From an uncultured virus (IMG/VR IMGVR_UViG_3300030001_000223) (Duplodnaviria; Heunggongvirae; Uroviricota; Caudoviricetes), in IMG/VR virus record IMGVR_UViG_3300030001_000223, positions 1-64,000 of that record: 64,000 nt of DNA; one strand, given 5' to 3'. This document shows, piece by piece, positions 8,327 through 60,122 of the stretch. The notes beneath the pieces are model-generated. The model searched no databases. It saw nothing but the letters and a program-made list of their open reading frames with translations, and was not told the origin of the DNA. Numbering within the stretch: position 1 is the first letter of the stretch; each line of letters starts with the position of its first letter. A program made the position numbers and the translations under genes.

Positions 8327-8344
8327 AATATAAAGGATTAAAAG

Positions 8345-10468: not shown

Positions 10469-10472
10469 TGTG

Positions 10473-21964: not shown

Positions 21965-22086
21965 AGGAAGATTACTTAGTATAAGGTTCGAAACTTATAC
22001 TAAGGACAGGGTTTTTCATGTGCCTTTCTTTCTTTTATAAAATACACATGAAAATAAATTATAACATGAAGGAGATAATACATATG
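21965..22086 (+). ncRNA. Structured 5'-leader RNA, copy 2 (loop palindrome TTCGAA)
   Basis: P1 aggaaga/tctttct; P2 cttagtataag/cttatactaag; loop ttttcatgtg is complementary to cacatgaaaa and to catgaagg at the SD. Confidence 0.7.
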
Positions 22087-26667: not shown

Positions 26668-27120
26668 GTGCAGATAATGGATTATGGAAGTATTGAAGAA
26701 TTTTATGCACAGTTACAAAGAGATACTCTTCGAGAATTAGAAGAAATAGCAGTTAAAGTACAACAAGATATTAGATTATATTTCTTAGAGAATATCTATA
26801 ATTATGAACCAAAAGTTTATGAAAGAACTGACATGTTACTAAATTCATGCAAAGTATCGCCAGTACAAAATAAAAATAGTGAGTTTTATATTGAAATATA
26901 CATAGACCATGATACAGTACATGCAAATCCAGCTTGGTATGATGAATCTGAAATGGGAATATCTGTTGGAGACTACATGACACTTGATGAAGTCTCTGAG
27001 CATTTCGCACTTGAAATGGGTAAAGATGCAGTAGGAACGGTCAATGAAGAATGGGAAAGTACAGGAAAGTTTATAAATGAAATGATGTCATTTTTACGTT
27101 CAAAATACGATATGGTATAA
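26668..27120 (+). CDS. Hypothetical tail/neck protein
   Basis: YEPKVYERT..LLNS motif typical of phage tail-completion proteins. Confidence 0.5.
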   Translation: MQIMDYGSIEEFYAQLQRDTLRELEEIAVKVQQDIRLYFLENIYNYEPKVYERTDMLLNSCKVSPVQNKNSEFYIEIYIDHDTVHANPAWYDESEMGISVGDYMTLDEVSEHFALEMGKDAVGTVNEEWESTGKFINEMMSFLRSKYDMV

Positions 27121-27170
27121 TAAATTAATAGAACGAACATAATTCAAAACACAGATTTTAACAAGACTTT

Positions 27171-30525: not shown

Positions 30526-30818
30526 AAAAACACCTCCTTTATAAAGTATTTTATTTTGGAAACAATAATATTTCTAATGTAAAATACTTTAAAGAAGATG
30601 GCAAAGAGTTATGAATGGATACAATATTCTATATTAATTTAGATATAATGTTTTATTTTAAATAGGTTTAGTTTCATTTTCATAACATTTCATTTTTTCC
30701 CTTTATCTATTTTAATATAGTATGTTTATTATACCATAAAATTGGAAAACTGTAAAATTAGATATAAAATTTTAGGATTGATTATAAATTACTTGAAAAA
30801 GTGTTATAATATAGATAT

Positions 30819-30943
30819 GGAAGGATAGATATATGAAGGGTTGCAAACTGGATTATATTGATAAGTGAATTTCGACCTCACTTCCTTTCTATTTTTATAA
30901 AATGGTCGAATAAATTAAATTATGAAAGGTCGAGATTGTAATG
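30819..30943 (+). ncRNA. Structured 5'-leader RNA, copy 3 (loop palindrome TTGCAA)
   Basis: P1 ggaagga/tcctttc; junction gataa; P3 gtga/tcac; loop ttcgacc is complementary to ggtcgaa and to ggtcgag just before the ATG. Confidence 0.7.
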
Positions 30944-32491
30944 GAGGATAATAAACAACTAAATCAAGAAGAATATATGGAGATTATTGAAAAATTTAAA
31001 AAAGAAAATAAAGAAGATTATGAAAAGGGTAAGATTAGAAAGGTATTTGATGAAAATCTTATATATAGTAAAAGTGGAAGAACTATTCATTGGAATGCTA
31101 GTATAGGTTATCAAGTATATTTTATACATGAAAATATAGAAGGATGGCTTAAAATAATTAATTATGATGTAAAAACAAGAAAATTAACAATAGATTATAA
31201 TAATGAATTGTTTTATATATTTTATGGAGATTTTTGCAAAGGTGGATTGTGTGCTATTTTGGGAATTGTTACAGTAGATTTCAAAATAGAAATAGGACAA
31301 ACATTTAAAGATGATAAAAGAGATTTAACTATTATTAATAGAGAATATAGAAAAGAAGAACATATTGATAAAAAAGGTAGAAAAAGTATAGTGAATTTAA
31401 AATACTACACATATAAGTGTAATAAATGTGGGCACAAAGGATTGTCATTAGAAGGGTCATTATTACGACAAAAGACAGGCTGTGCATGTTGTAATTCATC
31501 TAATAGAACTGTTGTATTGGGGATTAATACAATATATGATACTGATAAATGGATGATTCCATATATAGGTGAAGAATGTGCCAAAACTCATACTCATGGT
31601 AGCAATAAAAAAGTTGAAGTAACTTGTCCCGATTGTGGAAGAATTAAAAACAAACCTATGACAATAGGTAATATTTATAAACGACATTCAATAGGATGTC
31701 ATTATTGTTCTGATTCTGTAAGTTATCCAAATAAATTTGCATATGAACTATTAAATCAATTAAATAAAATATATAAATTTATTTATTTTCAACATGAATA
31801 TTCACCATCTTGGCTAGGTCAAAGAAGATTTGATAATTATTTTATATATAATGATAAAGAATACATAATAGAGATGGACGGAGGATTAGGTCATGGTAAA
31901 GGAAATTATAAAAATAACATGACATCTGAAGAATCTAAAGCTATTGATGATGAAAAAGATAGATTAGCTAAAGAACACAATATTGAAGTAATCAGAATAG
32001 ATTGTGAAATAAGTAGTTTGGATTATATTAAAAAACATATATTAGAAAGTAATTTAAATAAATTATTTGATTTAAGCAAAATAAATTGGCTAAAAGTCGA
32101 AGAATTTGCATTATCTAATTTAGTTAAAGAAGCTTGTAATTTATGGGATAGTGGTATTCATGATACTTTGAAAATTGCTGAGATAATGAAATTATCGAGA
32201 CCTACAATTACAACATATCTCAAAAAAGGTTCAAAGGAAGTATCTTGGTGTGAATATAACCCTAATGAAGAAAGTAAAAAAGGTACTATTCAATGCAAAC
32301 AAGTTAATAAAAAACCTTTAGAAGTATTTAAAGATAATATTTCTAAAGGAATATTTGAATCTGCTAGTGAATTAATAATAATAAGTGAAAAGTTATTCGG
32401 AGTTAAATTTGATTTTAGAAAAATATCATTAGTTTGTCTAGGAAAACAAAAGAAACATAAAGGATATACATTTAAATATATAATGAATTGA
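30941..32491 (+). CDS. Homing-endonuclease-like protein, paralog 2
   Basis: Same architecture as 22084: CxxC ribbons, RFDNYF..IIEMDGGLGH, C-terminal FESASEL..HKGYTFKY. Confidence 0.7.
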   Translation: MEDNKQLNQEEYMEIIEKFKKENKEDYEKGKIRKVFDENLIYSKSGRTIHWNASIGYQVYFIHENIEGWLKIINYDVKTRKLTIDYNNELFYIFYGDFCKGGLCAILGIVTVDFKIEIGQTFKDDKRDLTIINREYRKEEHIDKKGRKSIVNLKYYTYKCNKCGHKGLSLEGSLLRQKTGCACCNSSNRTVVLGINTIYDTDKWMIPYIGEECAKTHTHGSNKKVEVTCPDCGRIKNKPMTIGNIYKRHSIGCHYCSDSVSYPNKFAYELLNQLNKIYKFIYFQHEYSPSWLGQRRFDNYFIYNDKEYIIEMDGGLGHGKGNYKNNMTSEESKAIDDEKDRLAKEHNIEVIRIDCEISSLDYIKKHILESNLNKLFDLSKINWLKVEEFALSNLVKEACNLWDSGIHDTLKIAEIMKLSRPTITTYLKKGSKEVSWCEYNPNEESKKGTIQCKQVNKKPLEVFKDNISKGIFESASELIIISEKLFGVKFDFRKISLVCLGKQKKHKGYTFKYIMN

Positions 32492-33106: not shown

Positions 33107-34664
33107 ATGGCTGATTCATATAAAAATTCAATAAAATTAGGCATTGCTCTTAAACCAACAAGCGAGGTACAAAATGAGTTAAATAGTGCTATACAACAAT
33201 TAGAGAAAAATTCTAGTATAGATTTAAAAATAGATACAAAACAAATTAATCAATCTTTAAAAGATTTTAGTGAAACTTTAAATAGTATTAGTAATCAAAT
33301 GAAAAACGGGTTTAATTTGGGGAGTGTTTTTAATGCTCAAGCAAGTAGCGTTGAAGGTGTTACTAATAAATTAAAAGAAGAACAACAAGCAATTGAACAA
33401 ACTGCAAATACTATGAAAATTTTATCTAGTACTAAAATAGGTAATTCTGATTCTAATGGAAATATAACAGAAACATTAAAAACAGTTGAACAATTACAAG
33501 AAGGTATTGGTAAAACAACTAGATTAACAACTGATTTAAAAACTGGATTAAATACTGCAACTAATACAGAAAATTTTCAGAAGTTAGAGAATATAGTTGA
33601 TAATTTACAAAACAAATTAAATAAATCAAGTAATAATAAATTTGTAAATGAATCTGTAATTACTGAATTGCAAAATAAATTAAATGGAATTAATACTAAC
33701 ACAGCCGAAAAAGAAATCAAAGAATTACAAACTACTATTAATAACTTAGGAAGTTCAGACAATCAAATAGTGAGACTACAATCAACAATTAGTAAAATGG
33801 AATCCAGTCTTACATTAATGAAAAGTAAATATGGAAGTTTAGTAGGTGATAATAGTTCAAAGTCTTCTTTAGATGCTTATGTATCTGAAATAGAAAAATT
33901 AAAAACATTAATGGCTAGTTTACAAAACGGTGGAACAATTAGTGGTCAAAAACTAGCTTCTGAATTAAATTTAGGAACAGAAGCTAGTAGGAATTTATCT
34001 AATTCAGTTAAAAATTCTAGTTCAGCACTTAAACTAGCTCAACAAGATGCAAATTCTTTTGGAGGAACATTATCTAAAGTTTTGAGCAACGCTGGAATAT
34101 ATATGGGTGCTTATCAAGGTATTCAAATGTTAACTAATGCCGTAAAAGATGGTGCAAAATATGTAGAGTATTTAAATGCATCTTTTACAGATATGAAAAT
34201 GACAATGGATATTTCAGAAAGTGGTTTTACTAAATTATCTTCAGAAATAGATGAAATGGGTAAAAAAATCGGTGCAGTTTCTACAGATATGCATGATATC
34301 GCTAGAGTTTATGCTAACGCTAATACGTCTGCCGATGAAATAATGCAGAAGGTTAAGTCTGCTTCTGAATTGTCAAATATATCTGGCATGAGTGGAGTAG
34401 ATACTACAAAATCCATGCAATCAGTAATAAATCAGTTTAAGCTAATGTCGCAAGAAGGTGCTACTGCTAGTTCAGTCACTCAACATGTTGGAGATGTATT
34501 AACTACTGTTTCTAGAAATATGCAATATGATTTTGCAGATGGAATAAAGCAAGTTAATGAAGCAATAAAGACTTCAGGTTCAGTGGCAGAGACTGCTGGA
34601 GTAAGTTTAGAGTCATATGCTTCTATGGCAGGTGCTTTTATACAACAAACAGGCAAAACTGGGT
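33107..34664 (+). CDS. Tape measure protein, exon 1
   Basis: Coiled-coil followed by TP901-like core repeats; ends at the predicted 5' splice site ...ACTGGGT. Confidence 0.85.
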
Positions 34665-34804
34665 TAAATTTAGGCTCAGTATAAACTTATTCTAATATAC
34701 GGCGAACACCCAGAGATGGACAACGCCTTGGAAGATTAATTTTAATACATAATAAAATAAATTAAAAGTGTTTACAATGATATAATAAAAAGGTATTATT
34801 ATAT

Positions 34805-34920
34805 TAGAAACTAGATAAGGAGTAATTAACCATATTGAAAAGGAGTATCCGAACTCCCTGTTTCTATTTTTATAAATTCGGAAATAAATTAAAATACATA
34901 TCGGAGGTATTATAGTAATG
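34805..34920 (+). ncRNA. Structured 5'-leader RNA, copy 4 (loop palindrome TAATTA), inside the intron
   Basis: P1 tagaaac/gtttcta; P3 ggagt/actcc; loop tccga is complementary to tcgga twice downstream, the second at the SD; promoter TTTACA-N17-TATTAT at 34771-34799. Confidence 0.7.
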
Positions 34921-35955
34921 AAAGTAGGAAACTTAGAAGTATATGGTATTATATATAAAATAATAAATAAGTTAAACAATAAGATATATATTGGACAAAC
35001 AGCTAGAGATTTTAATAAAAGATATTTTTATACAGGAGAAACAAAATTAGAAAGAGTTTATAATCTGCATAAAAATATAAAAGAAAAGAATAATGGATAT
35101 TATAATAGACACTTATTAGAGTCTATGGAAAAATACAGTTTAAATAATTTTGAATTGGTTGAAGTCTTTGATATAGCTTTTTCAAAAGAAGAACTAAATA
35201 TTAAAGAACAATGTTGGATTAACGTTTACGATAGTTATCATAATGGATATAATCAAAATTTAGGCGGAGATGGGAATTATGGAGTTGAACGGAAAAAAGG
35301 AAAAGATAATCCAAGTTCTAAAGCTGTGGTTCAATTAAATAAAAAAGGAAAATATATAAAAACGTGGGATTGTATGGCTGATGCTGAAAGAGAATTACAG
35401 ATTGCCATAGGATGTATAAGTGGAGTATGCATTGGTTTATGTGATAAAAATGGATACATAAGAAAATCAATAGGTGGTTTTATGTGGAAATTTTTAGACG
35501 ATTATAATAAAGAAGAATCAATTATATATGATAATAAGGTAGGAGAGTATAATAAAAAACCTATAGTTCAACTAGGTTTAAATGGGGATTTTATAAAAGA
35601 ATATAATTCCATATCTGACGCTTGCAAAGAAACAGAAGGTTCTATAACATCTAAAATATCTAATTGTTGTCAAAATAAAAGAAAATCTCATAATGGTTAT
35701 ATATGGATATATAAAAGAGATTATAATAAAGATAATAATTATAATTATAATGTAAAAAATAGTGGGAAAAATAAACCAGTAATTCAACTATCAAAAGATA
35801 ATATTTTTATTAAAGAATATAATAGTATGTCTGATGCAAGTAAAGAATTAAATTTAAATATATCAAAAATATCTAATTGTTGTAATAATAAAAGAAAAAC
35901 ACATGGAAATTATATATGGTTATTTAAAGAAAACTATCAAGCTATAATAAAATAA
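34918..35955 (+). CDS. Intron-encoded GIY-YIG homing endonuclease with three NUMOD1-like repeats
   Basis: GIIYKI..KIYIGQT..E..GYN; repeated KPIVQL...IKEYNSISDA...ISNCC..KRKSHNGYIW. Confidence 0.92.
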   Translation: MKVGNLEVYGIIYKIINKLNNKIYIGQTARDFNKRYFYTGETKLERVYNLHKNIKEKNNGYYNRHLLESMEKYSLNNFELVEVFDIAFSKEELNIKEQCWINVYDSYHNGYNQNLGGDGNYGVERKKGKDNPSSKAVVQLNKKGKYIKTWDCMADAERELQIAIGCISGVCIGLCDKNGYIRKSIGGFMWKFLDDYNKEESIIYDNKVGEYNKKPIVQLGLNGDFIKEYNSISDACKETEGSITSKISNCCQNKRKSHNGYIWIYKRDYNKDNNYNYNVKNSGKNKPVIQLSKDNIFIKEYNSMSDASKELNLNISKISNCCNNKRKTHGNYIWLFKENYQAIIK

Positions 35956-36217
35956 GAATCAAAAATAAGCTAAAGTTTAACACTCTTTAGTTTATTTTAT
36001 TATGTATTAAATTAATCACCAACAACGACTTAACGAATAAGGCTTGTATTTCTTATACAAGTATGTAAAAGTCTGAACTACACGCTATAATCTAAAAAAG
36101 AAACGTGTGAGAAAAGGTCAAGTGTAAAGACACTTTAAGAAGAACCTTTTCCGCTATATAATATTATTAATTATATAGTCAGTAGCCTTTAAATGAAGGG
36201 TGAAAGTAACAGAATCG

Positions 36218-39200
36218 CAGAATTTGCAGATTCATTTAAAATGGTATCAGCTAGAGTATTACAACAAAAAGAATTAGGTGCAGATTTAGGTATTTCAGAA
36301 GCAGATATGGCAGGAGCAGAAAAGGCATTAACTAAATATAATATATCTATCAGAGAGTCTAATGGGGGGTTAAGAAATTTAGATGATATATTAAAAGATA
36401 CATCGGTTGCTTTTTCAACCATGAGTGACAGTGATAAACAATATGTTGCAAATAAACTAGCAGGTGTCAGACAAACATCAAGTTTTATAGCCATGATGGA
36501 TTCTATGAAAGTTCAACAAGATCTATATGGAAAAGCATTGGCATCAACTGGTGCTTTAGAAGATGCAAATTCAATTAAAGCAGAAAGTTATCAAGGAAAA
36601 TTAAACACTCTTAAAACAACTTTTAATCAATTATCAGCAACAATGATAAATGGAAAAATGTTAACTGGTGGTTTAGATATAGCTAGTGGTTCATTAAATG
36701 GAATTAACACAGTTGCTAGTAAATTAGGTACATTCCCAACATTAATAATGGCTATAACTGGTGCATTAACAATATTTAATACTAAATTTAGAGAAAATGT
36801 TAATATAATTGGTGGAGTAATTCCTGGATATTCAAAACTTACAAATTCTTTAAATGGATTAAAAGAAAGTTTATCAGCACAGGCAATAAAACAAGCAGAA
36901 AATATAAGTACATTAAAAACATTTGAAATGGCATATCAAAGTGGTGGAGTTTCAGTTAAAGGAATGTCTACTCAATTAGCAGGAATGGAAGCTAAATTAG
37001 TAGCAACAAGATTAGCGATGGTTGCTACTACAATTGCCACAGTTGCTATGGAAACAGCAGTAAGTATGGGTTTATCATTAGCAGTATCTTTCGCAATAAC
37101 AAAAATAATGGATTTAGTAAATGCACAAGAAAATTTAAAAAAGTCTAATGAAGAAGTTATATCTAGTTATAAAAGTGAAAAAGAAAGTATAACCAACGCT
37201 ACTAATTTATTGAAGCAAAAAACAGATTTAGAAAATAAAATATCTCAAACCAATGAAGGAACTAAAGAAAACAAAGATTTAAAAGAAAAGTTATTAGATA
37301 TTGAACGTCAACTAGCAACAGCATTACCTAATAGTGTAACAGGATTTGATTCAGAAGGAAAAGCTATATCCTCAAATAATAAACAAATTGAAGAACAAAT
37401 TAGACTAAAAAAAGAATCTATGTTAGCAGATACTATGAAACAATTAGGTAAAAATAATTCTGCAATAGATTTAACGTTAGGATACAATAATGGAGATCTT
37501 AGTAATATTCAGAATACTTTAGAAACGTTAAAAAAAACTAAAGCAGAATTTGAAAGTCAACTTGAAAGTGCTACAACAAATTTTGAAAAGTGGCAAGCAA
37601 AAACAGGAATAGAAAGTTATTCAAAAATGATAACAGATGCAGAATCCAGAATAGCTTCAAATAGAAGTCTAGTATTGCAAGCAGTAGACGCTGGCAAATC
37701 GTATCAACAAATAGCTGATGAAATGGGAGTATCTGAAGATGTTGTAAAAAGTTATGGAAAGGCAGTTCAAGATAATACTGAAAAACAAAAACAAAATTCC
37801 AATCAAATTAAAGAAGCATCAAATCAAACAAAAATTTTAGCACAAGCAAATAAAGAATTAAGTAGTGGTTCTAATCTTAGTACAGATACTATTAGTAAAA
37901 TAGCTGAAATTTATCCTGAAGTTGGAGATAATGCAGAAAAAGCAACAGCAAAAGTTGATGAGTTTAATAATTCTGTAAAAGAAGCCCAAGCAAAGGAAGT
38001 TGAAGATGCAACAACCGCATATACAAAATCAGCAGAAGAAATAGCTAAAGCACAAGGGTTTTTAGATAAACTTAATAAATCTCAAGCTGTAACCCCAGCT
38101 TTAGTTGGTGAAGTTTTAAAAGTATATCCAGAATTAGCAACTAGTTTAGGTAGTGTTACTAGTCTTCAAGAAGGATTAAATAGTAAGATAAAAGAACAAC
38201 AAGTTAGTCAAAATGAAGCCTATTTAACTATGATGTCAGATGATGAAACATTTTATCAAAATAAAATTGCCAATAACGATGAATATAAGAATGCATATAA
38301 TAATCTATTAAATGCATTCGTAGCAGATGGGGAACAAGCATATACTATAGATTTTTCAAAATATAAAACTCTTAACGAACTAAAGCAAGGAACAATGAAT
38401 AGTTTCGGTACGTCTGTTAATAAATGGTTGTCTCAGTATGTAGATGTTAATGCAGATGGCTATGCAGTAGATTTGTCTAATTTTACAGATATAGCAAAAG
38501 CAAAAGTCGCAGTTCTTGCAAAGCTAAATGAAGAAATAAAAAAGATTAATGCAAATTTAGCTGGTACAGAAGCGATGAAATCAGTATTTGACAATACTAA
38601 TCAAAGATTAGAATGGCAAGGAGACACTGATTTACCACAGTCTGATGCTGATAAATTTTTACAAAAATCGAATGATGATGTTATTTCTAAATATAAAACA
38701 AAAATTGATCAATTGAACGGTGCGGTTAAAGAAGTTGATACTAAGTTTGATGGATTTGGTACAAGCATGAAAGGTTTCTCAGGCGGGGATTTAGGTGGGG
38801 CTTCTGATTTTAGTGGAACTGGAGAAGATTCTGGCAAAAAAGGTAAATCAGCAGAAACTTTAGCAAAAGAAGCAGAAGCTGAATTAGTTAAATCAGAAAA
38901 ACAAATGCTTACTGATATTACTGATGCATATAATCAAGCAAAAGATAAAATAGATGATGATATTAATGCAATAGATACATCACTTCAATTACTTGGAGAT
39001 GCAGATGATTCCAATTTTACTCAACGTGTAGATTTAGCTACTCAAAAAATAGCTAAACAAAAGGATGAAGTAACTAATGCAAGTGACCAATTACAAAAAT
39101 TAAAAGATACAACGGTTACTACAGCAGAAGCACAGAAAGAACTAGAATCAGCTACATTAAAAGCTTCTAAAGAATTACGTACTCAAACTCTTGAAGCGAG

Positions 39201-40941
39201 TAAACTTCAAAAAGAATTAGAAAAGACTACACAAGAAGAAATTAAAGCAACTTTAGAAAAACAAAAGGAAATTGATACTGAGACACTTGATGCACAACAA
39301 AAAGCACAAACTGATAGATTAGATGCTATTAAAACTAAACAAGAAACTTTACATCAAGAAAAGTTAGATGCTTTAGATTCTGAAACCAAAGCTTTAGAGG
39401 CGCAATCAACAGCCTTAGACGAACAAAATACTGCAACAGAAAGAGCTACTGAATTAGAAAAAGAGAAGACTGACCTTTTAGAAAAACAACAAGAATTAAC
39501 AAATTTAGAAAGTCAAAAAACTAATCAAGTATATCAAAAGCAAGCAGACGGCTCTTGGAACTTCATGTATGTTTCTGATAAAGAAGCTGTATCTTCCAAA
39601 CAAAAGGAAGTTGATACCGCTCAAGCTACTTTAGATGAAACAAATAGAAAAAATGCTTTAGATGATGCTAAAAAAGAAATAGAAGACCAAAAAAGTGTTA
39701 TTGAAGCAGAAAAAACATCTGAAGATACTGCATACGATAAGAAAAAATCATATTTAGATAAATATTCAGATGATTTAAAAGAATCACAAGAAAGAGATAA
39801 ACAACGTCTTGAAACTCATTATGCTGATATTGATACTTTATCAAAAGAGACATTAAAACAGTTAGAAACAGAATATAATAATAATTGGGATGCGATAGCT
39901 GAACATATAACTACAACTTTGACTGCAACTAAAAAGCAATTAGAAGATTTAACTACATTGAAAGCCAATTTTACAACCACTGAAGCAGATGAGGCTATTA
40001 ATAGTGGTGATGTATCGGGTTATATAAATAAAAATAAAAGTAAAATGACTGATGAAGCTAAAGTAGACGAAAACGAGATAAATACTAATCTAAAGAATAT
40101 TGACACAAGTGCAAAAGTTGCTAATACTTCTATTGATGACTTAACTCAAAGTTATAAAGATTTATTATCTGTAAAAAATAATAATGAAATAACAAATGAA
40201 GATATCACAACTAGAAAGTCACAAGTTAAAACAATAACTAATATAGATTCAGAAGGATTAAATACGTCCTTAAAGAATTTACAAGATACTGATAAGAAAC
40301 TTGAAATTGAGCAAGATACCCATTGTAAAACTGAATTAACAAGACAAAGTAAAGCACAAGATGATGAGTTGGCTAGTTTAAAGAAGTTCTCAGAATCATA
40401 TTTATTAGTTACTAACAAATTCTTAGAATTATTACAAGTAGTATATGACTTCAGATTTAATAATATTACTACAATTGTTAGTGGTGCTGTGAGTAATATA
40501 TTAGAAGCATTGATACAAACTGAAGCAGATTATGAAAAATTTGCTGAAATGTGGAATAAAATGCATAAAGAAGATGACCAAATACCTTCAAGTGTGGATA
40601 TTTCAAGTAATGTATCTGGGACTGCTAGTTATAAACAATCTACTACAGATTATCAAACTGGTAAATTGTCCTTATATTCTGCTGATGCTTTTGAAAAATA
40701 TGCAAGTCAAATTGGAAACGGAATAAGTGAAAGTTTATTAAGTAAGCTTAGTAACTATTCAGCTTCTGTTGGAGTATCAACTAGTACAAGTAATTCATCA
40801 ACGGTAAATAATAAGAGTAATTCATCTTCTAGTAGTACTACTAATGTTAATATTAGTCAACTTGATGTAAATACAAAAGATGCACAAACATTATTAAATC
40901 AATTATTAATAATAGTTCAAAACAAAACAAACTTGAGTTAG
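36218..40941 (+). CDS. Tape measure protein, exon 2 (spliced product 2093 aa)
   Basis: Continues the TMP core (GLRNLDDIL...LAGVRQ), then hydrophobic segments and a long coiled coil. Confidence 0.88.
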
Positions 40942-41310: not shown

Positions 41311-42531
41311 ATGGAAACCAATAATCAACAAATATGTGGATTATCTAGAAATAGAACATTGTCTTGTAGAATAGAATTATTAGATTCAATAAATTATAAT
41401 GTAGTGGATACTTTACAAGGAGAAATAACTACAGGAAGTATAACTTTAACTAATAATAATTCAACAAGCAGTGCAAGTGGTTCTAGTGGAGATGATAGTG
41501 ACAATAGTAATTTTGCAAGAATATCAGGTAGTATTGAATTTATTTTATCTTCTGATTTAGTAATAGATTATTTTAAATTAGATTTAAAACATTTAATACG
41601 ATTGATTGTAATAATTAAAGATAATGTTAGTTCTATATCTGCTTCATATACTTTAGGAATCTGCATTATAAACACTCCTAATATTATTAGAGGAATTGAT
41701 GGAAGTAATAAAATATCTATAAATTTAAATGATTTAATGTCAAATTTTAATGGAGATTTTAGTGGGGAACTCGATCATAAAGTTACAATAGAAGCAAGTG
41801 ATACTACTAGTGCTAATTTATCACAGACTATTCAAGGAATTGCAACTAATGCAGATTTAATGGGGTTAGATATTAGTAAAGTTATATTTGAATCTAATAC
41901 ATATCAAATATTATCTGAAATTACTTGTGAAGTAGGTGGCAAGGTAACGGATTTATTGAAATCATTAATGGATTTATATAAGGGGTATGAATTATTTTTT
42001 AATGCAGATGGTATATTAGTTTATCAAAAAATTAAAAAATATAGTACAGATTATCCTATTCAAGAATATAATAATAGCCCTAATATTATTAGTTATAGTA
42101 TAAAAAAAGATTTTACTAATGTGAGAAATGATATAGTTGTCTTAGGTTGTACTGAAAGTGATACATCTAATAATAATGTTGGTAAACAGTATAAGGGAGA
42201 ATCAACTGAAGAAAATGATAATCACCCTTTTAGTATAAATAATATTGGTAAAAGAAAAAAAGTTATTTCTGATGAAAAGCAATTAACTGATGATTCTTGT
42301 AAAAGTGAAGCAGACTATTGGTTAGATAAATATACAAATTATGCTGAAACTTTAGAGCTGAATATACTACAAGACTTTAGACTAATACCTAATAGAGTTA
42401 TAAAAGTGACATATACAGATGATAATATTTCTATAAATAATAAAAGATATTTAATAAATAGTGTTACTTTTGGATTAAAACCGTCTGATTTATCTACAGT
42501 AAGTTGTTCATTGTTATATGATAATATTTAA
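41311..42531 (+). CDS. Putative tail tip/baseplate hub protein
   Basis: ELFFNADGILVY and DFTNVRNDIVVLG motifs; position after the TMP. Confidence 0.6.
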   Translation: METNNQQICGLSRNRTLSCRIELLDSINYNVVDTLQGEITTGSITLTNNNSTSSASGSSGDDSDNSNFARISGSIEFILSSDLVIDYFKLDLKHLIRLIVIIKDNVSSISASYTLGICIINTPNIIRGIDGSNKISINLNDLMSNFNGDFSGELDHKVTIEASDTTSANLSQTIQGIATNADLMGLDISKVIFESNTYQILSEITCEVGGKVTDLLKSLMDLYKGYELFFNADGILVYQKIKKYSTDYPIQEYNNSPNIISYSIKKDFTNVRNDIVVLGCTESDTSNNNVGKQYKGESTEENDNHPFSINNIGKRKKVISDEKQLTDDSCKSEADYWLDKYTNYAETLELNILQDFRLIPNRVIKVTYTDDNISINNKRYLINSVTFGLKPSDLSTVSCSLLYDNI

Positions 42532-42691
42532 TAAAAACATAATACTAATAAATAAATTATAAAACAAACGTTGTAATTTTCTTTTATTAGTATTATTATA
42601 TAAGCATACCGAATAAATACAAATTGTGGTATAATATTCTAAGAAAACAATATGGTGTATTTATATAATGATACTAAGGAGAGTGGACAAT

Positions 42692-43495
42692 ATGAAAAAA
42701 TCTATAAGAAAATTAATAGTTATAGGCTTGATATCAAGTTCAATAAGTATTTTACCATTAGTTGGAGCAAGTGCAGAATGGAAACAAAATTTAGATAACA
42801 CATGGTCAAATACAGATGTTTCAGATGGTTGGTTTAAAGATGATTCAAATTGGTATTTCTTTAAGAATGGAGTTATGCAAACTGGTTGGTTAAAAGATTC
42901 TAATGGAAAATACTATTATCTATCGAGTAATGGAAATATGTTATCAAATACAACTACACCAGATGGATTTAAAGTAGATAATAATGGAGTCTGGATTCAA
43001 AATACAACAATAAATTCAAATAATACTACTAACATAAGTACAAATGTAGCAAATACCGCTAATAGCAATAATAGTTCTAATACTAATGTAACTAGCAATA
43101 CGGATAACAGTACAAAAACCACAGCTAATACGACATTAAATAATACTGGAGTAATTAATGCTAATACAACTAACAATGTTGATGTTACAGTTGATAATAC
43201 CAGTAAAGCTGAGAATGAATATTATAAAGAGTTAAAGAAGAGTGAGCAAAAAAGTGATGATAGTTTAAAAGCATATTATCAAAAACAATTAGATGAAGCG
43301 AGATCAGATTTAGCATCAGCACAACAAGAACTAAGTAATGTTAAAGGTCAATTAACTAACAAGACATTAACAAAACAGTCAGATGGTACATGGCAATATG
43401 TATATGTTGCAGATTCACAAAAAGTAGCACAATGTGAAAAGAAGGTAAAAAGTTGTCAAAGTAATGTTGATTATTATGAGAAACTGGTTAAATAA
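42692..43495 (+). CDS. Secreted cell-wall (choline-binding repeat) protein with Asn/Thr linker and TMP-like C-terminal domain
   Basis: Signal peptide MKKSIRKLIVIG...ASA/EWKQ; WYFFKNGVMQTGWLKDSNGKYYYLSSNGNM repeats; C-terminus similar to TMP 39454-39636. Confidence 0.85.
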   Translation: MKKSIRKLIVIGLISSSISILPLVGASAEWKQNLDNTWSNTDVSDGWFKDDSNWYFFKNGVMQTGWLKDSNGKYYYLSSNGNMLSNTTTPDGFKVDNNGVWIQNTTINSNNTTNISTNVANTANSNNSSNTNVTSNTDNSTKTTANTTLNNTGVINANTTNNVDVTVDNTSKAENEYYKELKKSEQKSDDSLKAYYQKQLDEARSDLASAQQELSNVKGQLTNKTLTKQSDGTWQYVYVADSQKVAQCEKKVKSCQSNVDYYEKLVK

Positions 43496-43574
43496 TTAAG
43501 ATTAGTATATATAGTTTAATTTAAGACTTAGATTTATTTCTAGGTCTTTTTATTATGTAAGATTAGAATAAAAT

Positions 43575-43805
43575 CTAATCTTCAAGTTTAATTCTATGAA
43601 TTTTAACTTTCTTTCGTTCAACTAAATCATTAATTTCACAATCAAAGAATTCGCATAAAATTTCTAAATGTTCTTTATTGATCATTTTAAAAGTATTATT
43701 TACATAATCACTAATAGTTCCTTGACGTATACCAGTTTGACGGCTTAATTCTCTTTGACCTATATTATGTTGTTCCATTATTTCTTTTAGTTTTAAATGT
43801 ATCAT
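43575..43805 (-). CDS. XRE/Cro-C1 HTH repressor
   Basis: QRELSRQTGIRQGTISDYVNN...LCEFFDCEINDLV. Confidence 0.9.
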   Translation of the reverse strand: MIHLKLKEIMEQHNIGQRELSRQTGIRQGTISDYVNNTFKMINKEHLEILCEFFDCEINDLVERKKVKIHRIKLED

Positions 43806-43844
43806 ATCATCACCTCAATTATATTATACCATAAAATTTAAAAA

Positions 43845-43933
43845 TGATACGAAAAAAGTTTCAAAAAAGTATTGACACGAAAATTGTATCAATGTATAGT
43901 ATAAATATACCAAGTGATACGAAATATGTATCA
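43845..43933. promoter_or_regulatory. Three palindromic operators TGATAC-N7-GTATCA across divergent promoters
   Basis: tgatacgaaaaaagtttca (43845), tgacacgaaaattgtatca (43873, overlaps TTGACA), tgatacgaaatatgtatca (43915). Confidence 0.8.
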
Positions 43934-43958
43934 AATAAAACTTGAGGAGAGTGTTATT

Positions 43959-44321
43959 ATGGAAACAATTATTAATAATGATTATGAAAGCAACCTACCA
44001 CAAAGAACCATAGAATATTTAGGGTTCTTAAATTTCTTACAAGAACAAAGAGATTGGGATAATGATTTAGTAATTATAAGTGGTGAAGAGTGGGATAAGT
44101 TTTATGATCCTACTACAGATGATGAATATGAAATGAAACTAGATATAGTTAATGTCAAAGACTTCTTTAATAAATTTGCAGAGATAACTAAAACAGACCA
44201 ATGGAAATTTGAGAATTATTTTGTTAGTAGTAAATACATAGATGAATGGACGTATAATACAATGAATTTAATAGTTAAAGTTGATGGATTGAATCAAAGA
44301 TTTATTATTGATTGCGTTTAA
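43959..44321 (+). CDS. Acidic hypothetical protein, paralog of 29788-30276
   Basis: Visible similarity to the paralog; RBS GAGGAG. Confidence 0.7.
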   Translation: METIINNDYESNLPQRTIEYLGFLNFLQEQRDWDNDLVIISGEEWDKFYDPTTDDEYEMKLDIVNVKDFFNKFAEITKTDQWKFENYFVSSKYIDEWTYNTMNLIVKVDGLNQRFIIDCV

Positions 44322-44359: not shown

Positions 44360-44488
44360 GAGTAGAGAATAGATATTAGTAGATAGTCGACGATTTGTTA
44401 ATATTGATAAGTAACAACTTCTAAGTTACTTTTTCTACTTTATTTAATTATTAGGAGAAATATAATTAAAATGGAGGAATTAGTTATG
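44360..44488 (+). ncRNA. Structured 5'-leader RNA, copy 5 (loop palindrome GTCGAC)
   Basis: P1 agtagagaa/ttttctact; P2 gatattagtagat/atttgttaatatt; junction gataa; P3 gtaac/gttac; loop cttctaa pairs with ttaggag and tggagg (SD). Confidence 0.7.
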
Positions 44489-46114
44489 GAACAATTAAAT
44501 GAGAAAGAATATTTAGAGTATATTGAGAAGTGGAAGCTAGAACATGAAAATAAGATTAAAAGTGGTAAATGCAGACATATATTTTTAGAGTGTTTACCTA
44601 AATTAAAAAATAATAACAGTAAAATAATAAATTGGCAAAAAAGTCCTAAATATGTTATATTTTTTATATATGATAATATCGAAGGCAATATTGAAATTAT
44701 AGAATATAATAAAAATACGAGAAATTTGTTATTACAGTATAATAGTAAAAAAAATAAATTATACACTCATGATTTATTAAATTGTTATATCGAAGGAATA
44801 ATAGGAAGAAGAATATCAAATTTTAAATTAGAAATAGGGGCTCATATTCGGGATATAAAAAGAAATTTAACTATTACAGATAAAGAATATAGACCTACTT
44901 ATAATGATAATGGTAACTTAAGACAAAACGTAAAATGGTATAAATATACTTGTAATAAGTGTGGATGGACTGAAGGTTGGGTGAGAGAAGGTTCATTATT
45001 AGGAGAAAAAACAGGTTGTGGATGTTGTTGCAAAAATAATAAGACTTTAGTTGAAGGAATAAATGATATTCCTTCAACTGCACCTTGGATGATACCATAT
45101 TTTCAAGGTGGATATGAAGAAGCTAAATTGTATACTCATAGTAGTAATGAAAAGATTTTCCCCATATGTCCTGATTGTGGGAGGATTAAAGATAAAAAGA
45201 TGACGATTTCTAAAATTTATAATAGACATTCTATTGGATGCTCTTGCTGTGACAAAATTCCTTATCCAGAAAAATTTGTATTTTCAATTTTAGAACAGTT
45301 AGATTTGGATTTTCAAATACAACTATCCAAATCGACTTTTATATGGTGTAATAAATATAAATATGATTTTTATTTTAAGTTAAATAATGAACTATATGTA
45401 ATAGAAACGCATGGAATTCAACACTATGAAGATTCAAGTGGAGTTTTTACAAAGTCAATTAAAGAAGAGCAAGAAAATGATAGATTAAAGAAAGAATTAG
45501 CTTTATCTAATGGAATTAAAGAAGAAAACTATATAGTGATTGATTGTAGATATAGCACATTGGAGTGGATTAGAGATAACGACAATGGAATGTTAAATAG
45601 TAGATTAAATGAATTGTTCGATTTAAGTAAAGTTGATTGGCTAAAATGTGCCGAATTTTCTTGCTCAAATTTAGTAAAAATAGCATGTAAATTAAAAAGA
45701 GATACTCCTAATTTAACAACAACCGAAATAGGTGAAATAATGAAGTTAGAAGGACAAACTATAAGAAAATACCTAAAACAAGGTTCTGAGATATGGAATT
45801 GGATTAATTATAATGCAAAAGAAGAAATAATGAGAAATGGAAAACGATGTAGTTTAAATTCAGCTTTAAATCCAATAATAATGTTCAAAAATCAAAAATA
45901 TATATATTTGTTCAAATCAGGACGTTCATTAGAAAGACAGTCGGAAAAATTATTTGAAACTAAATTATGGCAAGCTAATATATCAGCAGTATGTCGTGGT
46001 AAAAAGCCACAATACAAAGGATATACTTTTAAATATGTTCAAGACCTAACTTCAGAAGAAAGAATTAAATATGATATAGAAAATAAACTTAAAGAATTAG
46101 AAAAATCAGCTTGA
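44486..46114 (+). CDS. Homing-endonuclease-like protein, paralog 3
   Basis: Same architecture; YDFYF..VIETHGIQHY..END. Confidence 0.7.
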   Translation: MEQLNEKEYLEYIEKWKLEHENKIKSGKCRHIFLECLPKLKNNNSKIINWQKSPKYVIFFIYDNIEGNIEIIEYNKNTRNLLLQYNSKKNKLYTHDLLNCYIEGIIGRRISNFKLEIGAHIRDIKRNLTITDKEYRPTYNDNGNLRQNVKWYKYTCNKCGWTEGWVREGSLLGEKTGCGCCCKNNKTLVEGINDIPSTAPWMIPYFQGGYEEAKLYTHSSNEKIFPICPDCGRIKDKKMTISKIYNRHSIGCSCCDKIPYPEKFVFSILEQLDLDFQIQLSKSTFIWCNKYKYDFYFKLNNELYVIETHGIQHYEDSSGVFTKSIKEEQENDRLKKELALSNGIKEENYIVIDCRYSTLEWIRDNDNGMLNSRLNELFDLSKVDWLKCAEFSCSNLVKIACKLKRDTPNLTTTEIGEIMKLEGQTIRKYLKQGSEIWNWINYNAKEEIMRNGKRCSLNSALNPIIMFKNQKYIYLFKSGRSLERQSEKLFETKLWQANISAVCRGKKPQYKGYTFKYVQDLTSEERIKYDIENKLKELEKSA

Positions 46115-46460
46115 AAACTATTTAATATAATCCTATTAAAAGCTTTAAATTATATAATCAATCATTTTTATAAAATATAATAAGAATATTATCGTATAAT
46201 TTGTAGAAATATGTTAAAATATAGATATAAACAGATTGATAATTATAAATTGATTTATTATTGTCAAAACTTTACTAATATTTATATTTTAACATATATA
46301 AGATTGTGGTAAAATTAAAAGGTAATAATTTACAATATAACTATTAAGTTGGTTTAATTGGAATAAAATTCTTGTAATATTATGTTAAGGGGTGTATTAT
46401 ATGGTTATAAAGAGATATATAAAAAACGTAAGTATATTAAATAAAGATGGGGGTGTTAGT

Positions 46461-46634
46461 ATGGAAAATGTCATTTCTATGGATAAATATATTGAAGATA
46501 CACAATCGAATGAATGTGAATGGGATATAATTAGAAATATATGTCAAAAGGCTATACAAAGAAAAGGATATACATCACAACAGGTTCATGAAATTTCAAA
46601 GAAGATATTAAGAGAGGTACGTGAAGACAAATGA
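46461..46634 (+). CDS. Putative antitoxin
   Basis: Small ORF overlapping the PIN gene start (ATGA); C-terminal ILREVRE. Confidence 0.55.
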   Translation: MENVISMDKYIEDTQSNECEWDIIRNICQKAIQRKGYTSQQVHEISKKILREVREDK

Positions 46635-47107
46635 ATGTAATTTTAGATACTAATATATTTATAGGAGCATTTTTTGAAAATAATAAAGATTGTAGTTTAA
46701 TATTAAAAGAGGAAAAGAATGGTGAATTTGAGTTAATAATGAGCCACGAAATGCAAGAAGAACTTAATAGAATTTTACATAGTTCATTTAAAAAATACGA
46801 ATTCACTGCGAGTCAAATAGAGATAATATTTAAAATGTTATCAAAAGCCTTATTAAGAACAACTAATATTAAACCATCTCATAATTTTAGTAAATGCAGT
46901 GATAAAGATGATAATATGTTTTTCTCTTGTGCTATAGATGGAAATGCTAACTATATAATTAGTAAAGATGCTCATATCCATGCATTAAAAGATGATAAAA
47001 ATCCTATAAAGAATAAAAATAAAGAAGAAATAAAGATATTATATCCAGATGAATTTATTATGGAACTAAAAAAAATAAAATTAGTTGCAAATTTTAGTAA
47101 TCATTAA
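46631..47107 (+). CDS. PIN-domain (VapC-like) toxin
   Basis: VILDTNIFI, E, DKDDNMFFSCA, YIISKD and KILYPDEF motifs. Confidence 0.88.
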   Translation: MNVILDTNIFIGAFFENNKDCSLILKEEKNGEFELIMSHEMQEELNRILHSSFKKYEFTASQIEIIFKMLSKALLRTTNIKPSHNFSKCSDKDDNMFFSCAIDGNANYIISKDAHIHALKDDKNPIKNKNKEEIKILYPDEFIMELKKIKLVANFSNH

Positions 47108-56974: not shown

Positions 56975-57826
56975 CTAGGCTACATTGAGAAGATGATTTC
57001 TGTATTGGACAGGAGTCATCTTTTCTAAATCCCATTGATATCTATATTCGTTGTAATAAATCATGTATTGATTAACTTCTTCTTTTAGCGCATCTAAAGT
57101 TTCACATTGCTTTATATATGCCTCATCTTTAAAATGCCCGAAGAATGACTCTTGTGGAGCATTATCCCAACAATTACCTCGTCTAGACATAGATTGTCCT
57201 AATTTAGCATCTTTAACTACTTGTTGAAATTTAGGGCTAGTATAATGTACACCTTGATCAGAGTGGATAAATGCATCTTTATGTAATTCTATTGATTTAT
57301 TGTCTTTTAGATTCTGTATTGTATCAGTTACTATATCTAGTTTTAGACTCGATGATACATTATATGCTACTATTTCATTTGTGCTGGCATCTTTAATTGT
57401 GGATAAGTATGCTTTTTGACCTTTACCATAAAATAAATATGTTATATCTGTTAGTAATATTTTACCTGGTATACCTTGTTTGAAATTTCTCTTTAGTAGA
57501 TTTGGTAAAACAGTATGTTCTCTTGTTGCTTTCATCATTCTTCTATATGGATTTGCTTTTCTAATAGGACAAATGATACTATATTTTTTCATAACTCTTC
57601 TAATACGCTTCAAGTTATATATAATTCCAAACTGACCTTCTAAAGTCATTTTAATTTGTCTAGCGCCCTTTTTACGATTTTTAAACTTATATGCCTTAAT
57701 TATATTATCTCTAATCAACTCATCTTCTATATCTCTAGACTCTCTATATCCTTTAGATTTAGTTGAAAAATAATTATAGTACCCCGAACGTGAAACGCCT
57801 GCTAAATCACATAAATTGCTAATCAT
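56975..57826 (-). CDS. IS3 transposase OrfB (DDE); frame extends upstream to an A8 slippery site near 57930-57937
   Basis: TDITY, HSDQGVHY and GNCWDNAPQESFF motifs. Confidence 0.95.
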   Translation of the reverse strand: MISNLCDLAGVSRSGYYNYFSTKSKGYRESRDIEDELIRDNIIKAYKFKNRKKGARQIKMTLEGQFGIIYNLKRIRRVMKKYSIICPIRKANPYRRMMKATREHTVLPNLLKRNFKQGIPGKILLTDITYLFYGKGQKAYLSTIKDASTNEIVAYNVSSSLKLDIVTDTIQNLKDNKSIELHKDAFIHSDQGVHYTSPKFQQVVKDAKLGQSMSRRGNCWDNAPQESFFGHFKDEAYIKQCETLDALKEEVNQYMIYYNEYRYQWDLEKMTPVQYRNHLLNVA

Positions 57827-58641: not shown

Positions 58642-58664
58642 AATAATAAGGAGTGTGGATAATT

Positions 58665-60122
58665 ATGAAAGATACAAAAAGAATTATATATTCAGATAAA
58701 TTACCTAGATATACAGAAGGTAGATATAGAAATAAAATAAATTGGAAAGAAAGTATAGGTTGTAAAGTACAATTTATATATGATGATATAACAGGATATG
58801 TTGAAATTATTGAATATAATAAGATTACTAAGGAATTAATAATAAAACATAACAATCTTGAGTCTATAATATTATGTGGAAATTTTTTAAAATGTAAGTT
58901 AGGTACAATTTTAAAGAAATATACTTCGGAATTTAAACTCGAAATAGGAGATAGATTTCAAGACAATAAGAGAGATATAATTATTGTAGACAAAGAATAT
59001 AGACTAAAATATGATAATAAAAACAAAAAGTATAACATGAAATATTATAAATACAAATGCAATAGATGTAGATATAATGAAGGTTGGATTGTAGAATATG
59101 ATTTATTAAAAGGACATGGTTGCTCATGTTGTCATGGATTAACTACAGTATTAGGTATTAACACAATATGGGATACTGCTAGATGGATGTGTGACTTGGG
59201 TGTGTCAGAAGAAGATGCTAAAACTCATACACATGGAAGCAATAATAAAGTAAGCGTCATATGTCCAGATTGTAAATTAGAAAAGATGGTAAAAATATGT
59301 GATTTATATACAAATCACTCAATATCATGTAAATGTGGGGATGGCTTTAGTTATGGTCATAAGTACATATTTAGTTTACTAACTCAATTAAAACAAGATT
59401 TCATAGATAATTATACATTTGATTGGTGTAAATTCTATAATCTATATAAAGAAAAAGAAGTTTCAGGAGAATATGATTTTATTTTAGAAGATAAAAATAT
59501 AATTATCGAAGTAGATGGAGGATTTCATAGAACAGATAATAATAGAAGTGGGCAGACGAAAGAAGAATCTATATTTTTAGACAATGAAAAGGATAAACTG
59601 GCTCTAGATAATGGGTATAAAGTTATTAGAATAATTTATAACGATGATAATTTAAATATCAAACAAAATATAATATTAAATAAATATTTAAACATCTTAT
59701 TTGACTTATCTAATATTGATTGGACTAAATGTGAAGAATTTGCGTTAAGTAACAGAGTTAAGGAAGCTTGTAAATTAAAAAATAATAACCTTGAAATGAC
59801 AACTACTGAAATTGGATTAATCTTAAATATTAGTTCAGATTCAGTTAGAAATTATTTAAAAAAGGGAAATAAACTTGGTTGGTGTTACTACAATGCTAAA
59901 GAAGAACAAATTAGAAATTCCATAAAAACAGGATACAAGGTAACAAAAAAAATAGAAGTATTTAAGAATGGAGAATCATTAGGAGTTTTTGAATCTATAA
60001 AATGTTTAATTGATAAAAGCAAAAAAATATTAGAAGTACAATTATGTAGAAATGGAATAAGAGAACAAATAAAAAATAATACAGAGTCATATAAGGGATT
60101 TACCTTTAATATTTCAAGCTAA
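58665..60122 (+). CDS. Homing-endonuclease-like protein, paralog 4
   Basis: Same architecture; YDFIL..IIEVDGGFH. Confidence 0.7.
   Translation: MKDTKRIIYSDKLPRYTEGRYRNKINWKESIGCKVQFIYDDITGYVEIIEYNKITKELIIKHNNLESIILCGNFLKCKLGTILKKYTSEFKLEIGDRFQDNKRDIIIVDKEYRLKYDNKNKKYNMKYYKYKCNRCRYNEGWIVEYDLLKGHGCSCCHGLTTVLGINTIWDTARWMCDLGVSEEDAKTHTHGSNNKVSVICPDCKLEKMVKICDLYTNHSISCKCGDGFSYGHKYIFSLLTQLKQDFIDNYTFDWCKFYNLYKEKEVSGEYDFILEDKNIIIEVDGGFHRTDNNRSGQTKEESIFLDNEKDKLALDNGYKVIRIIYNDDNLNIKQNIILNKYLNILFDLSNIDWTKCEEFALSNRVKEACKLKNNNLEMTTTEIGLILNISSDSVRNYLKKGNKLGWCYYNAKEEQIRNSIKTGYKVTKKIEVFKNGESLGVFESIKCLIDKSKKILEVQLCRNGIREQIKNNTESYKGFTFNISS

Follow-up and report, generated by a model that had tools for sequence, protein, structure and literature searches.

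What might a phage gain from a gene whose product is predicted to sit on the host cell wall while carrying a segment otherwise found within its tape measure protein (TMP)? The question is raised by a 267-aa protein, here called the small protein, encoded by an uncultured virus of the Caudoviricetes (IMG/VR record IMGVR_UViG_3300030001_000223). The record is linear, with 120,845 bases and a CheckV completeness of 49%, and the window analyzed here is its first 64 kb (64,000 nucleotides). Here, we describe the C-terminal module that the small protein and the TMP have in common, the family to which it belongs and the gene that carries it, and we tentatively propose a role in excluding incoming phages.

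A tape measure-type module in a small protein

The principal features are as follows, with folds taken from AlphaFold 2 (AF2) models and their confidence given as the predicted local distance difference test (pLDDT).

42692..43495, + strand: gene for the 267-aa protein with a TMP-type module (predicted export and wall anchoring); an open reading frame (ORF) with relatives in 16 viral-contig loci and a 12-row family alignment
42676..42683, + strand: ribosome-binding site AAGGAGAG, about 10 nt before the ATG at 42692, read from the sequence
42692..42772, + strand: Sec-type signal peptide, residues 1-27 (basic start, hydrophobic core, ASA followed by EW), read from the translation
42779..43003, + strand: choline-binding-type cell-wall-binding repeats, residues ~30-104, from Pfam matches and the AF2 model
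43004..43198, + strand: Asn/Thr-rich tether, residues 105-169, modelled as disordered (pLDDT <50)
43205..43489, + strand: C-terminal helix / beta-hairpin / helix module, residues 172-266, from TMP homology and a fold with pLDDT >=90
43358..43408, + strand: aromatic beta-hairpin, residues 223-239, core KQSDGTWQYVYVA, with strands at 223-228 and 234-239 in the full-length model
33107..34684, + strand: tape measure protein, N-terminal ORF, from TMP PHROGs, TIGR01760 (37.3 bits vs a cut-off of 28.8) and collinearity with the related locus L007
36193..40941, + strand: tape measure protein, main (C-terminal) ORF, 1582 aa, phrog_4211 TMP (E 7e-41), collinear with L007
39388..39693, + strand: homologous module within the TMP, residues 1066-1167, with the BLAST-aligned part at 39451-39636

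When the whole small protein is compared with the 1582-aa TMP by BLASTP, a single ungapped match is returned, aligning residues 199-260 with 1087-1148 (24/62 identities, 45/62 positives, 57.8 bits, and an expect value, E, of 3e-13 with compositional adjustment); the second-best segment scores 18.5 bits. Smith-Waterman alignment of the 98-aa C-terminal part with the TMP scores 145, relative to a mean of 53.6 (standard deviation 6.5, maximum 78) for 500 composition-preserving shuffles, giving z 14.1 for the real score, and the best score among 26 other TMP windows of like composition is 43. Taken separately, each of the three sub-segments (N-helix, hairpin core, C-helix) outscores 2000 of 2000 in-register shuffles. 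Because the shuffle, other-window and in-register controls all fall far below the real match, coiled-coil composition does not explain it. Both regions are helical and rich in K, E and Q, as a chance or compositional similarity of two coiled-coil-rich sequences would have it, and this explanation, to which we give virtually no credence, is refuted by the E value, the z score, the other TMP windows (no higher than 43 vs 145) and the rank of the TMP in the profile search described below. A preliminary description of the locus, made from its letters and ORF translations, had reported an ungapped domain-to-TMP match with 24 of 61 residues identical and named correction for coiled-coil composition as a check; the match is confirmed and stays significant after composition adjustment and shuffling.

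The start codon is assigned to the ATG at 42692, in agreement with the N-termini of homologues; an in-frame ATG upstream, at 42668, is not common to them. Residues 1-27 are modelled with pLDDT <50, and A28, E29 and W30 are invariant in 12 homologues, consistent with predicted signal-peptide cleavage at this point and export by the Sec pathway. Residues 46-101 lie above the Pfam cut-offs for three repeat families (PF19085, 34.1 bits vs 27; PF19127, 33 vs 27; PF01473, 26.3 vs 20.5), and residues 30-104 are modelled by AF2 as beta-hairpins (about three to four, pLDDT 72-86), which would anchor the protein to the wall in the manner of choline-binding proteins. NCBIfam matches to PspA and PspC are confined to this repeat region. 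The tether is of low complexity and modelled as disordered apart from a TLNNTGxI motif (residues 149-155, 43136-43156) in which L149, N150, N151, T152, G153 and I155 are invariant in the 12 homologues; a natural variant, P0001, has 18 residues missing from the tether and a module that is 100% identical. Within the hairpin, G is invariant and D nearly invariant over 50 alignment rows. The full architecture is kept across the 16 viral loci down to 49% best-segment identity, and more weakly (28%) in L018, with no frameshifts or stops among the 12 aligned family members. The signal peptide, choline-binding-type anchor and Asn/Thr spacer read in the preliminary description are all borne out by the translation, the Pfam cut-offs, the AF2 model and the homologues. 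The protein has no match to the TMP families PF10145, TIGR01760 or phrog_4211, having only the ~90-aa module in common with TMPs, and none of the defence families of PADLOC-DB 2.0 matches it at E up to 0.01.

An AF2 model of the 98-aa domain, built on a 50-row alignment, has a helix (residues 2-50), two strands (54-59 and 65-70) and a second helix (73-97) with a pLDDT of 95.9, and the full-length model repeats this helix / two-stranded beta-hairpin / helix arrangement with pLDDT >=90 in the module; the strands coincide with what had been described beforehand as a hairpin-like aromatic motif. Foldseek found nothing in the PDB at E up to 1e-3, a match to prefoldin beta (2zdi_B) having E 0.055 and a template modelling score (TM) of 0.57; a feature-based search of the Atlas yielded no usable match, and a wide VIA-align search gave generic helical hairpins only, the best at Z 8.9, within the range of common helical arrangements. 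A PDB sequence profile search with the module found nothing below E 0.9. The top match in the BFVD viral structure library is an uncharacterised 129-aa siphovirus protein (E 6.1e-5), and those below it are mostly minor tail and tape measure proteins. That the hairpin is a stray choline-binding repeat was considered and rejected, since hhalign gives the repeat region and the module an alignment probability of 0.8% (E 0.071).

Distribution and ancestry of the module

A profile built from the two segments of the window was searched against 1.84 billion cluster representatives and gave 78 proteins at E up to 1e-3, with the TMP of the window recovered independently as the top match. Local re-scoring by best single-domain score identifies 68 of the 78 as genuine full-length module matches, the other ten having only a short DGTW-like piece in unrelated repeat proteins. 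The core in the genuine representatives is Q-K-T-x-Q-x-L-x-K-Q-x-D-G-x-W-x-x-x-Y-x-x-D, and the module of the small protein matches over its whole length. No family in Pfam, NCBIfam, PADLOC or the PDB sequences covers the module, which, judged from these alignments, is a real conserved family, hitherto undescribed. A word-index search among longer proteins gave no match; the exhaustive profile search did find them.

The matches include TMPs, TMP fragments, and small proteins with signal-like N-termini. A profile search had been suggested in the preliminary description as a way of seeing whether the domain occurs both in TMPs and in wall-anchored proteins, and the module is indeed present both in TMP-like proteins and in small anchored proteins with signal-like N-termini. 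Among 22 long matches scanned with Pfam, nine carry the TMP family PF10145, P0033 has sub-cut-off matches only, and the other 12 have none at E up to 1e-4; those without PF10145 are putative TMPs by their likeness to the others. The long proteins carry the module in their C-terminal third, with ~170-430 residues separating it from the C-terminus. A tblastn search of 50,697 isolate phage records with the small-protein module matched a single protein, 1655 aa long and from the tail region of Clostridium phage D-1873, and the same search with the TMP module gave no match.

The small secreted-type forms come with any of three different N-termini: some have choline-binding repeats (5 of the 13 short profile matches scanned), P0037 has two Fn3 domains with a Pro/Thr linker, and P0023 has an unassigned sequence. 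P0037 and P0023 were not found in viral contigs, and their clusters are single-member and on short contigs. In a module tree of 59 sequences and 102 columns, in which many forks are open, the choline-binding family is a single clade of 16 rows (support 96/94) with P0037 as its sister (95/96), while P0023 and P0043 group elsewhere, adjoining the TMPs P0044 and P0052. On this tree the supported branches force at least two origins of the small forms.

One of these TMPs bears on how the small protein is put together. P0044, a 1697-aa protein with PF10145 from a 127-kb contig, contains choline-binding repeats (residues 1163-1236) ~160 residues before its module (1393-1449), within the TMP itself, and is collinear with the small protein in two blocks, the repeats (E 1e-11) and the module (E 2e-9, 24/54 identical). 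Because both blocks align collinearly, the mature small protein appears to mirror a wall-contacting TMP stretch to which a signal peptide has been added. To our knowledge, TMPs that contain wall-binding repeats have not been described before, and none was among the papers listed by a literature search that touched on choline-binding repeats in TMPs and on jumbo Clostridium phages.

In the related records that were searched, four of five hold exactly two copies of the module, one in the TMP and one in the small protein, and the fifth, which is 13% complete, has the small-protein copy only. In record G004 the pair shares 21/35 core residues, and the two genes are identical at 111 of the 165 positions of one DNA stretch, within which 26 nt and 17 nt match without interruption; these exact runs point to a recombination patch – local gene conversion – between the TMP and small-protein genes. 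The related locus L006 has two tandem paralogues of the small-protein gene (8114-8848 and 10001-10756) in which the N-terminal 40 residues are nearly identical and the second hairpin strand is YVPSVD in one and YVYVAD in the other, along with other C-terminal differences.

These data also bear on whether the gene is simply a decaying fragment of a duplicated TMP gene with its ORF kept by chance. In favour of such an origin, the module derives from a TMP, and endonuclease insertions often break up the TMP genes of these phages; conservation contradicts it, however, in that the full architecture persists in 16 viral loci at the identities given above without frameshifts or stops in the 12 aligned members, the end of the signal peptide is invariant, the promoter-like site (see below) is conserved, the module occurs in three different fusion architectures, and AF2 confidence is high. 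We regard decay as very improbable.

The transcription unit and its phage

The gene is bounded by sites that would allow it to be transcribed on its own.

42627..42635, + strand: extended -10 promoter-like site TGGTATAAT, an exact match 57 nt upstream of the start codon
43523..43558 (hairpin 43523-43548), + strand: terminator-like hairpin with T-run after the stop codon, 1 found vs 0.2 expected
43575..43805, - strand: convergent small helix-turn-helix (HTH) regulator gene (PF13443, E 1.2e-15), with its own TGGTATAAT at 43823-43831 (-) just upstream

The 9-mer occurs six times in the window on both strands vs 1.99 expected, and it is found 41-65 nt upstream of the homologous gene in five of six representative loci, which differ in the sequence type of their flanks; in the remaining locus a TTGACT/TATTAT pair, judged by eye, takes its place. 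In DNA as AT-rich as this, a generic two-hexamer promoter scan gives no more sites than chance (16 found vs 16.3 expected). We take TGGTATAAT to be a putative promoter, and its copies (1626-1634, 14975-14983, 27113-27121, 30728-30736, 42627-42635 and 43823-43831, one of them ~230 nt upstream of an anti-repressor-like gene at 27348) are possibly a set of host-polymerase promoters for non-structural islands.

Hairpins comparable to the one after the stop codon stand 3' of the homologous gene, by eye, in L007, L013, L015 and L018 (clear) and in L016 (weak), and terminator-like hairpins also lie 5' of the gene in L013, L015 and L016. Next after the homologous gene, L015, L017 and L018 each have a minus-strand HTH-type regulator; the three proteins have an N-terminal sequence in common, and the HTH is read by eye. 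Other, unassigned minus-strand ORFs take that place in L007 and L013, and there is none in L016. Two arrangements of the gene itself occur: it stands beyond the TMP and a tail protein (the window, L016), or it precedes the TMP (L007, L013, L015, L018), in which case its neighbours are anti-repressor-like genes, minus-strand regulator-like ORFs and endonuclease genes. Such differences of position among related phages are as expected of a moron. The GC content is 0.251 at 42001-44000, vs 0.261 and 0.260 in the adjoining 2-kb windows, and is thus not unlike that of the flanks. With the exception of deviant composition, the moron features that can be read from sequence are present, and the gene fits a moron-like, independently transcribed unit; the suggestion made beforehand of a moron with a promoter-like region and terminator finds support in the 9-mer at five of the six loci and in the hairpin at 43523-43548.

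The same features bear on when the protein would be made. It could be a lytic-cycle helper that coats the wall of the infected cell and stops ejection into infected cells or debris, or aids the phage's own entry or release. The gene is on the same strand as the tail and baseplate cluster that surrounds it, being squeezed between a tail protein and baseplate-like genes in L016, and the endolysin of the phage shares a wall-binding-type region with the small protein (phrog_7854 matches both). Phages are also known to protect their progeny from receptor-bearing debris, as T5 does with Llp. The gene is nevertheless insulated by its own promoter-like and terminator-like sites, with a minus-strand HTH-type regulator after it in three of six loci (L015, L017, L018) and anti-repressor-like genes nearby, surroundings that look more like an early or maintenance island than like those of a late gene. 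We consider the lytic-helper role improbable, and it overlaps mechanistically with the interference that we favour, the main difference being timing.

The window has a GC content of ~26% and a plus-strand structural cluster that includes terminase, head protease, virion proteins, a split TMP, tail, baseplate and fibre genes, an endolysin and a holin. The remainder of the record encodes DNA polymerase III alpha, gyrase-type topoisomerase subunits, NAD-dependent ligase, ribonucleotide reductase, and dUTPase, and has two tyrosine recombinases. From two related records, one of 218 kb (88% complete) and the other of 229 kb (100% complete), we place these viruses in a jumbo-size phage group (~220-230 kb). 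The nearest bacterial-genome relatives of the N-terminal part of the small protein are in Clostridium species, and one family member is filed as a hypothetical protein under a Clostridium sp. metagenome-assembled genome; on both counts the host is probably Clostridium. A megablast search of isolate phages with 12 kb gave no match.

The two TMP ORFs (33107-40941) are parted by an insertion of ~1.5 kb (~34685-36192) with a GIY-YIG/HNH-type homing endonuclease gene at 34918-35955, and are collinear with residues 1-547 and 607-1778 of the uninterrupted L007 TMP. An Rfam search of the interruption gave no intron family at the gathering threshold, so that an intron and a split gene are both possible; the TMP genes of the relatives L013, L015 and L016 are interrupted too. 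Dispersed in the structural cluster are four large endonuclease-like genes, paralogous to one another (phrog_4538, homing-endonuclease core), at 22018-23715, 30941-32491, 44471-46114 and 58653-60122, one of them 1 kb downstream of the small-protein gene. Elsewhere in the record, L111 11464-14900 (record 95464-98900, - strand) has a ribonucleotide reductase large-subunit gene in two pieces around a LAGLIDADG endonuclease gene. At 46392-47107, within the tail cluster, a PIN-family toxin-type gene (TIGR00305, 61.7 bits vs a cut-off of 29.15) has its start overlapped by an ORF of 80 aa, and the two are likely a toxin-antitoxin pair. A transposase gene (56975-57826, - strand; phrog_157, E 2.1e-70) stands directly after the endolysin-holin pair on the opposite strand, and a drum RNA (RF02958) match at 4753-4863 (+; 55.9 bits vs a gathering score of 43) is the sole Rfam family in the window.

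A candidate role and its relation to known systems

On ejection the TMP is the first to leave the tail, and it is believed to provide the conduit for DNA. We propose that the gene may be a self-contained moron-type unit of a large (~220-230 kb) Clostridium-type phage, with a product that would be exported by its Sec signal peptide, held on the wall by the choline-binding-type repeats, and extended on a disordered ~65-residue Asn/Thr tether so as to display an alpha-hairpin capped by an aromatic beta-hairpin. The displayed module, a diverged paralogue of the conserved module in the C-terminal third of Firmicute phage TMPs, would interfere with TMP-dependent DNA delivery by incoming phages whose TMP has a like module, either by occupying the envelope ligand of the TMP module or by associating with the ejected TMP module itself. 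Interference with DNA entry at the wall is thus the role that we favour, though tentatively, and it is suggested by the predicted holding at the wall of a module otherwise found inside TMPs, the in-register homology and confident fold of that module, the repeats beside the module in P0044, the paired occurrence of the two copies, the recombination patch in G004 and the tandem paralogues of L006, the moron-like flanking sites and changing position of the gene, and the existence of known TMP-dependent exclusion proteins (Ltp and HK97 gp15) and of a wall-anchored protein, CwpV, that stops entry at a stage later than adsorption. Export, wall anchoring, the timing of expression, contact with the TMP, and exclusion are steps that we infer. 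A complex prediction for the TMP module and the small-protein module, run without controls, scores 0.10 vs a mark of 0.32 and does not count in either direction on binding. The 24 sequencing runs listed as possible sources of this DNA are all of DNA and labelled peat metagenome, and so bear neither on expression nor, independently, on habitat.

Several observations weigh against such a role. The small-protein modules form an old clade set apart from the TMP modules by long branches (0.83-0.88) and end in a family-specific VDYYEKLVK helix that the TMPs are without, so that they may have another partner. The core of the window module is identical to its own TMP at 13/35 residues and to the TMP of record G002 at 21/35. 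Mean identity of own pairs over the 35-residue core is 0.463 vs a permutation mean of 0.414, with 20 of 120 permutations as good; over the full length 9 of 120 are as good, which is not significant, and the 1 of 120 for the N-helix alone comes from five related phages and is given no weight. The gene lies on the same strand inside a tail gene cluster and could simply be made late, and the phage is at most a candidate for lysogeny, its record, 49% complete, encoding two tyrosine recombinases along with anti-repressor-like proteins and HTH regulators. Members of the family come solely from this phage group and from metagenomes, and 79 bacterial-genome loci share the N-terminal repeat part only, none with the full architecture. 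Finally, the alpha-hairpin fold is generic, and its PDB matches (Z <=8.9) are below a meaningful level for helical folds.

Two expectations of the preliminary description are not borne out by these comparisons. The module had been called a copy of the phage's own TMP segment; with small-protein modules in a separate, well-supported clade and a core nearer to the G002 TMP, the alignments indicate that it is an old diverged paralogue, not a recent copy, with sequence exchange with the TMP at times. Co-variation of the pairs, which had been proposed as a check, is negative overall, with only the G004 pair matched. The interpretation offered there, that a lysogen displays a tethered mimic of the TMP, is partly supported, its exclusion mechanism being something that we infer rather than observe.

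An alternative is that the protein has another role at the surface, the TMP-type module being reused as a stable stalk, an oligomerisation unit or an envelope-ligand-binding unit, so as to alter the host surface (aggregation, adhesion, wall turnover or carrier-cell conversion) with no action on incoming phages. In shape, an alpha-hairpin tipped by a beta-hairpin is like generic assembly modules (prefoldin beta, at the E and TM values given above, and adaptor-protein hairpins), and Gram-positive surface proteins are commonly laid out as a choline-binding anchor, a linker and a coiled coil, the PspA and PspC matches here covering the repeats only. The age of the small-protein clade with its own C-terminal helix, and the want of general own-pair co-variation, would also suit a surface role. 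We think it somewhat less likely than interference, in that the module was found only in TMP-like and small proteins and not in the 79 bacterial wall-protein loci that have the N-terminal part, the hairpin core conserved in TMPs is also conserved in the secreted forms, and the gene is paired with a module-bearing TMP and has recombined with the TMP gene in one lineage. This pairing, together with the G004 recombination, points to a TMP-linked role.

Interference with DNA entry could take a more specific form, which we hold to be less likely again, in which the small protein is a dominant-negative TMP mimic: the wall-tethered module would co-assemble with the incoming TMP or take its ligand, and the conduit would be blocked. 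The hairpin would then be the specificity determinant, subject to an arms race; such a race would explain the tandem paralogues that differ in a hairpin strand, the gene-conversion patch in G004, and the resemblance of the window module to a competitor's TMP. Were this so, the same trick would have arisen at least twice with different anchors.

How the TMP opens a path for DNA through the thick Gram-positive wall is poorly understood, and we know of no account of the contacts made by exclusion proteins that act at the TMP step. The present findings provide a conserved, confidently folded TMP module described by no database, and a natural experiment in which phages display that module on the cell surface, separate from the remaining TMP; the sequence variants, both the paralogues and the conversion patch, point to the hairpin as the working part. 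Among the papers listed by literature searches on TMPs and exclusion, mimicry or decoys, none describes an exclusion protein homologous to a TMP segment. If the proposed role is correct, this would be the first exclusion factor made from a piece of its target, and would mark the TMP stretch that meets the envelope; if the protein is not an excluder, the module is still a new family and a handle on binding by that part of the TMP.

Comparison with known systems places the small protein beside several of them. At the level of shape, the alpha-hairpins of prefoldin beta and of AcrA, HlyD and MexA (Z 8.4-8.6) have the same antiparallel-helix topology, with a beta-hairpin joint in prefoldin; they have no sequence relation to the module, their scores lie in the common helical range, and the likeness is one of shape only. 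Mycobacteriophage TMPs embed small motifs, e.g. the peptidoglycan-hydrolase / Rpf-like motif of TM4 (PMC1796659), and like these the module is a short TMP-embedded unit common to secreted proteins at the wall. Motifs of the TM4 type, however, have their relatives among wall-acting proteins of the host and help the phage that carries them to infect, whereas the module described here is non-enzymatic and occurs also in a secreted-type protein of the phage itself.

Among exclusion systems, the block exerted by the HK97 gp15 moron is dependent on which tail tube and TMP genes the incoming phage has (PMC10883804). The small protein is similarly a candidate for TMP-dependent exclusion encoded by a moron-type gene; gp15, unlike it, is a predicted inner-membrane protein of a Gram-negative host and is not known to have TMP homology. 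The small protein is also, by prediction, a clostridial-type wall-anchored protein with a C-terminal candidate effector, as is CwpV of Clostridioides difficile. CwpV has an anchor of the CWB2 type, and no CWB2-type anchor is among the Pfam matches of the small protein. The C-terminal part of CwpV prevents phage DNA replication with adsorption unaffected, an effect akin to superinfection exclusion and strongest for siphophages (PMC4737114). Unlike the small protein, CwpV is host-encoded and phase-variable, and it is described as having a repeat-containing C-terminal domain (PMC4737114).

CbpL of Streptococcus pneumoniae has a choline-binding module, a linker and a C-terminal Ltp domain expected to contact a protein or wall component (PMC5137146), and the small protein has its choline-binding module, linker and C-terminal domain in the same order. 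CbpL differs in being host-encoded, in having an Ltp-like C-terminal domain, and in having been studied for virulence, not phage exclusion. Ltp itself, from Streptococcus phage TP-J34, is exported and tethered and blocks DNA entry, with escape mutations in the TMP (PMC10883804, PMC4737114). Like Ltp, the small protein is phage-encoded and predicted to be exported and tethered outside the membrane. Ltp, however, is a lipoprotein with HTH-like repeat domains and no TMP homology; the small protein has no lipobox Cys, its signal peptide ending LVGASA before EW with no Cys in residues 1-30, which holds in 12 homologues, and PF07553, the Ltp repeat domain, is not among its Pfam matches at E up to 0.01. 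Where Ltp is a lipoprotein, the small protein would be anchored by choline-binding repeats, and its effector part would be a TMP-type module. By analogy, it would work most like the Ltp-type exclusion proteins, yet from outside that family.

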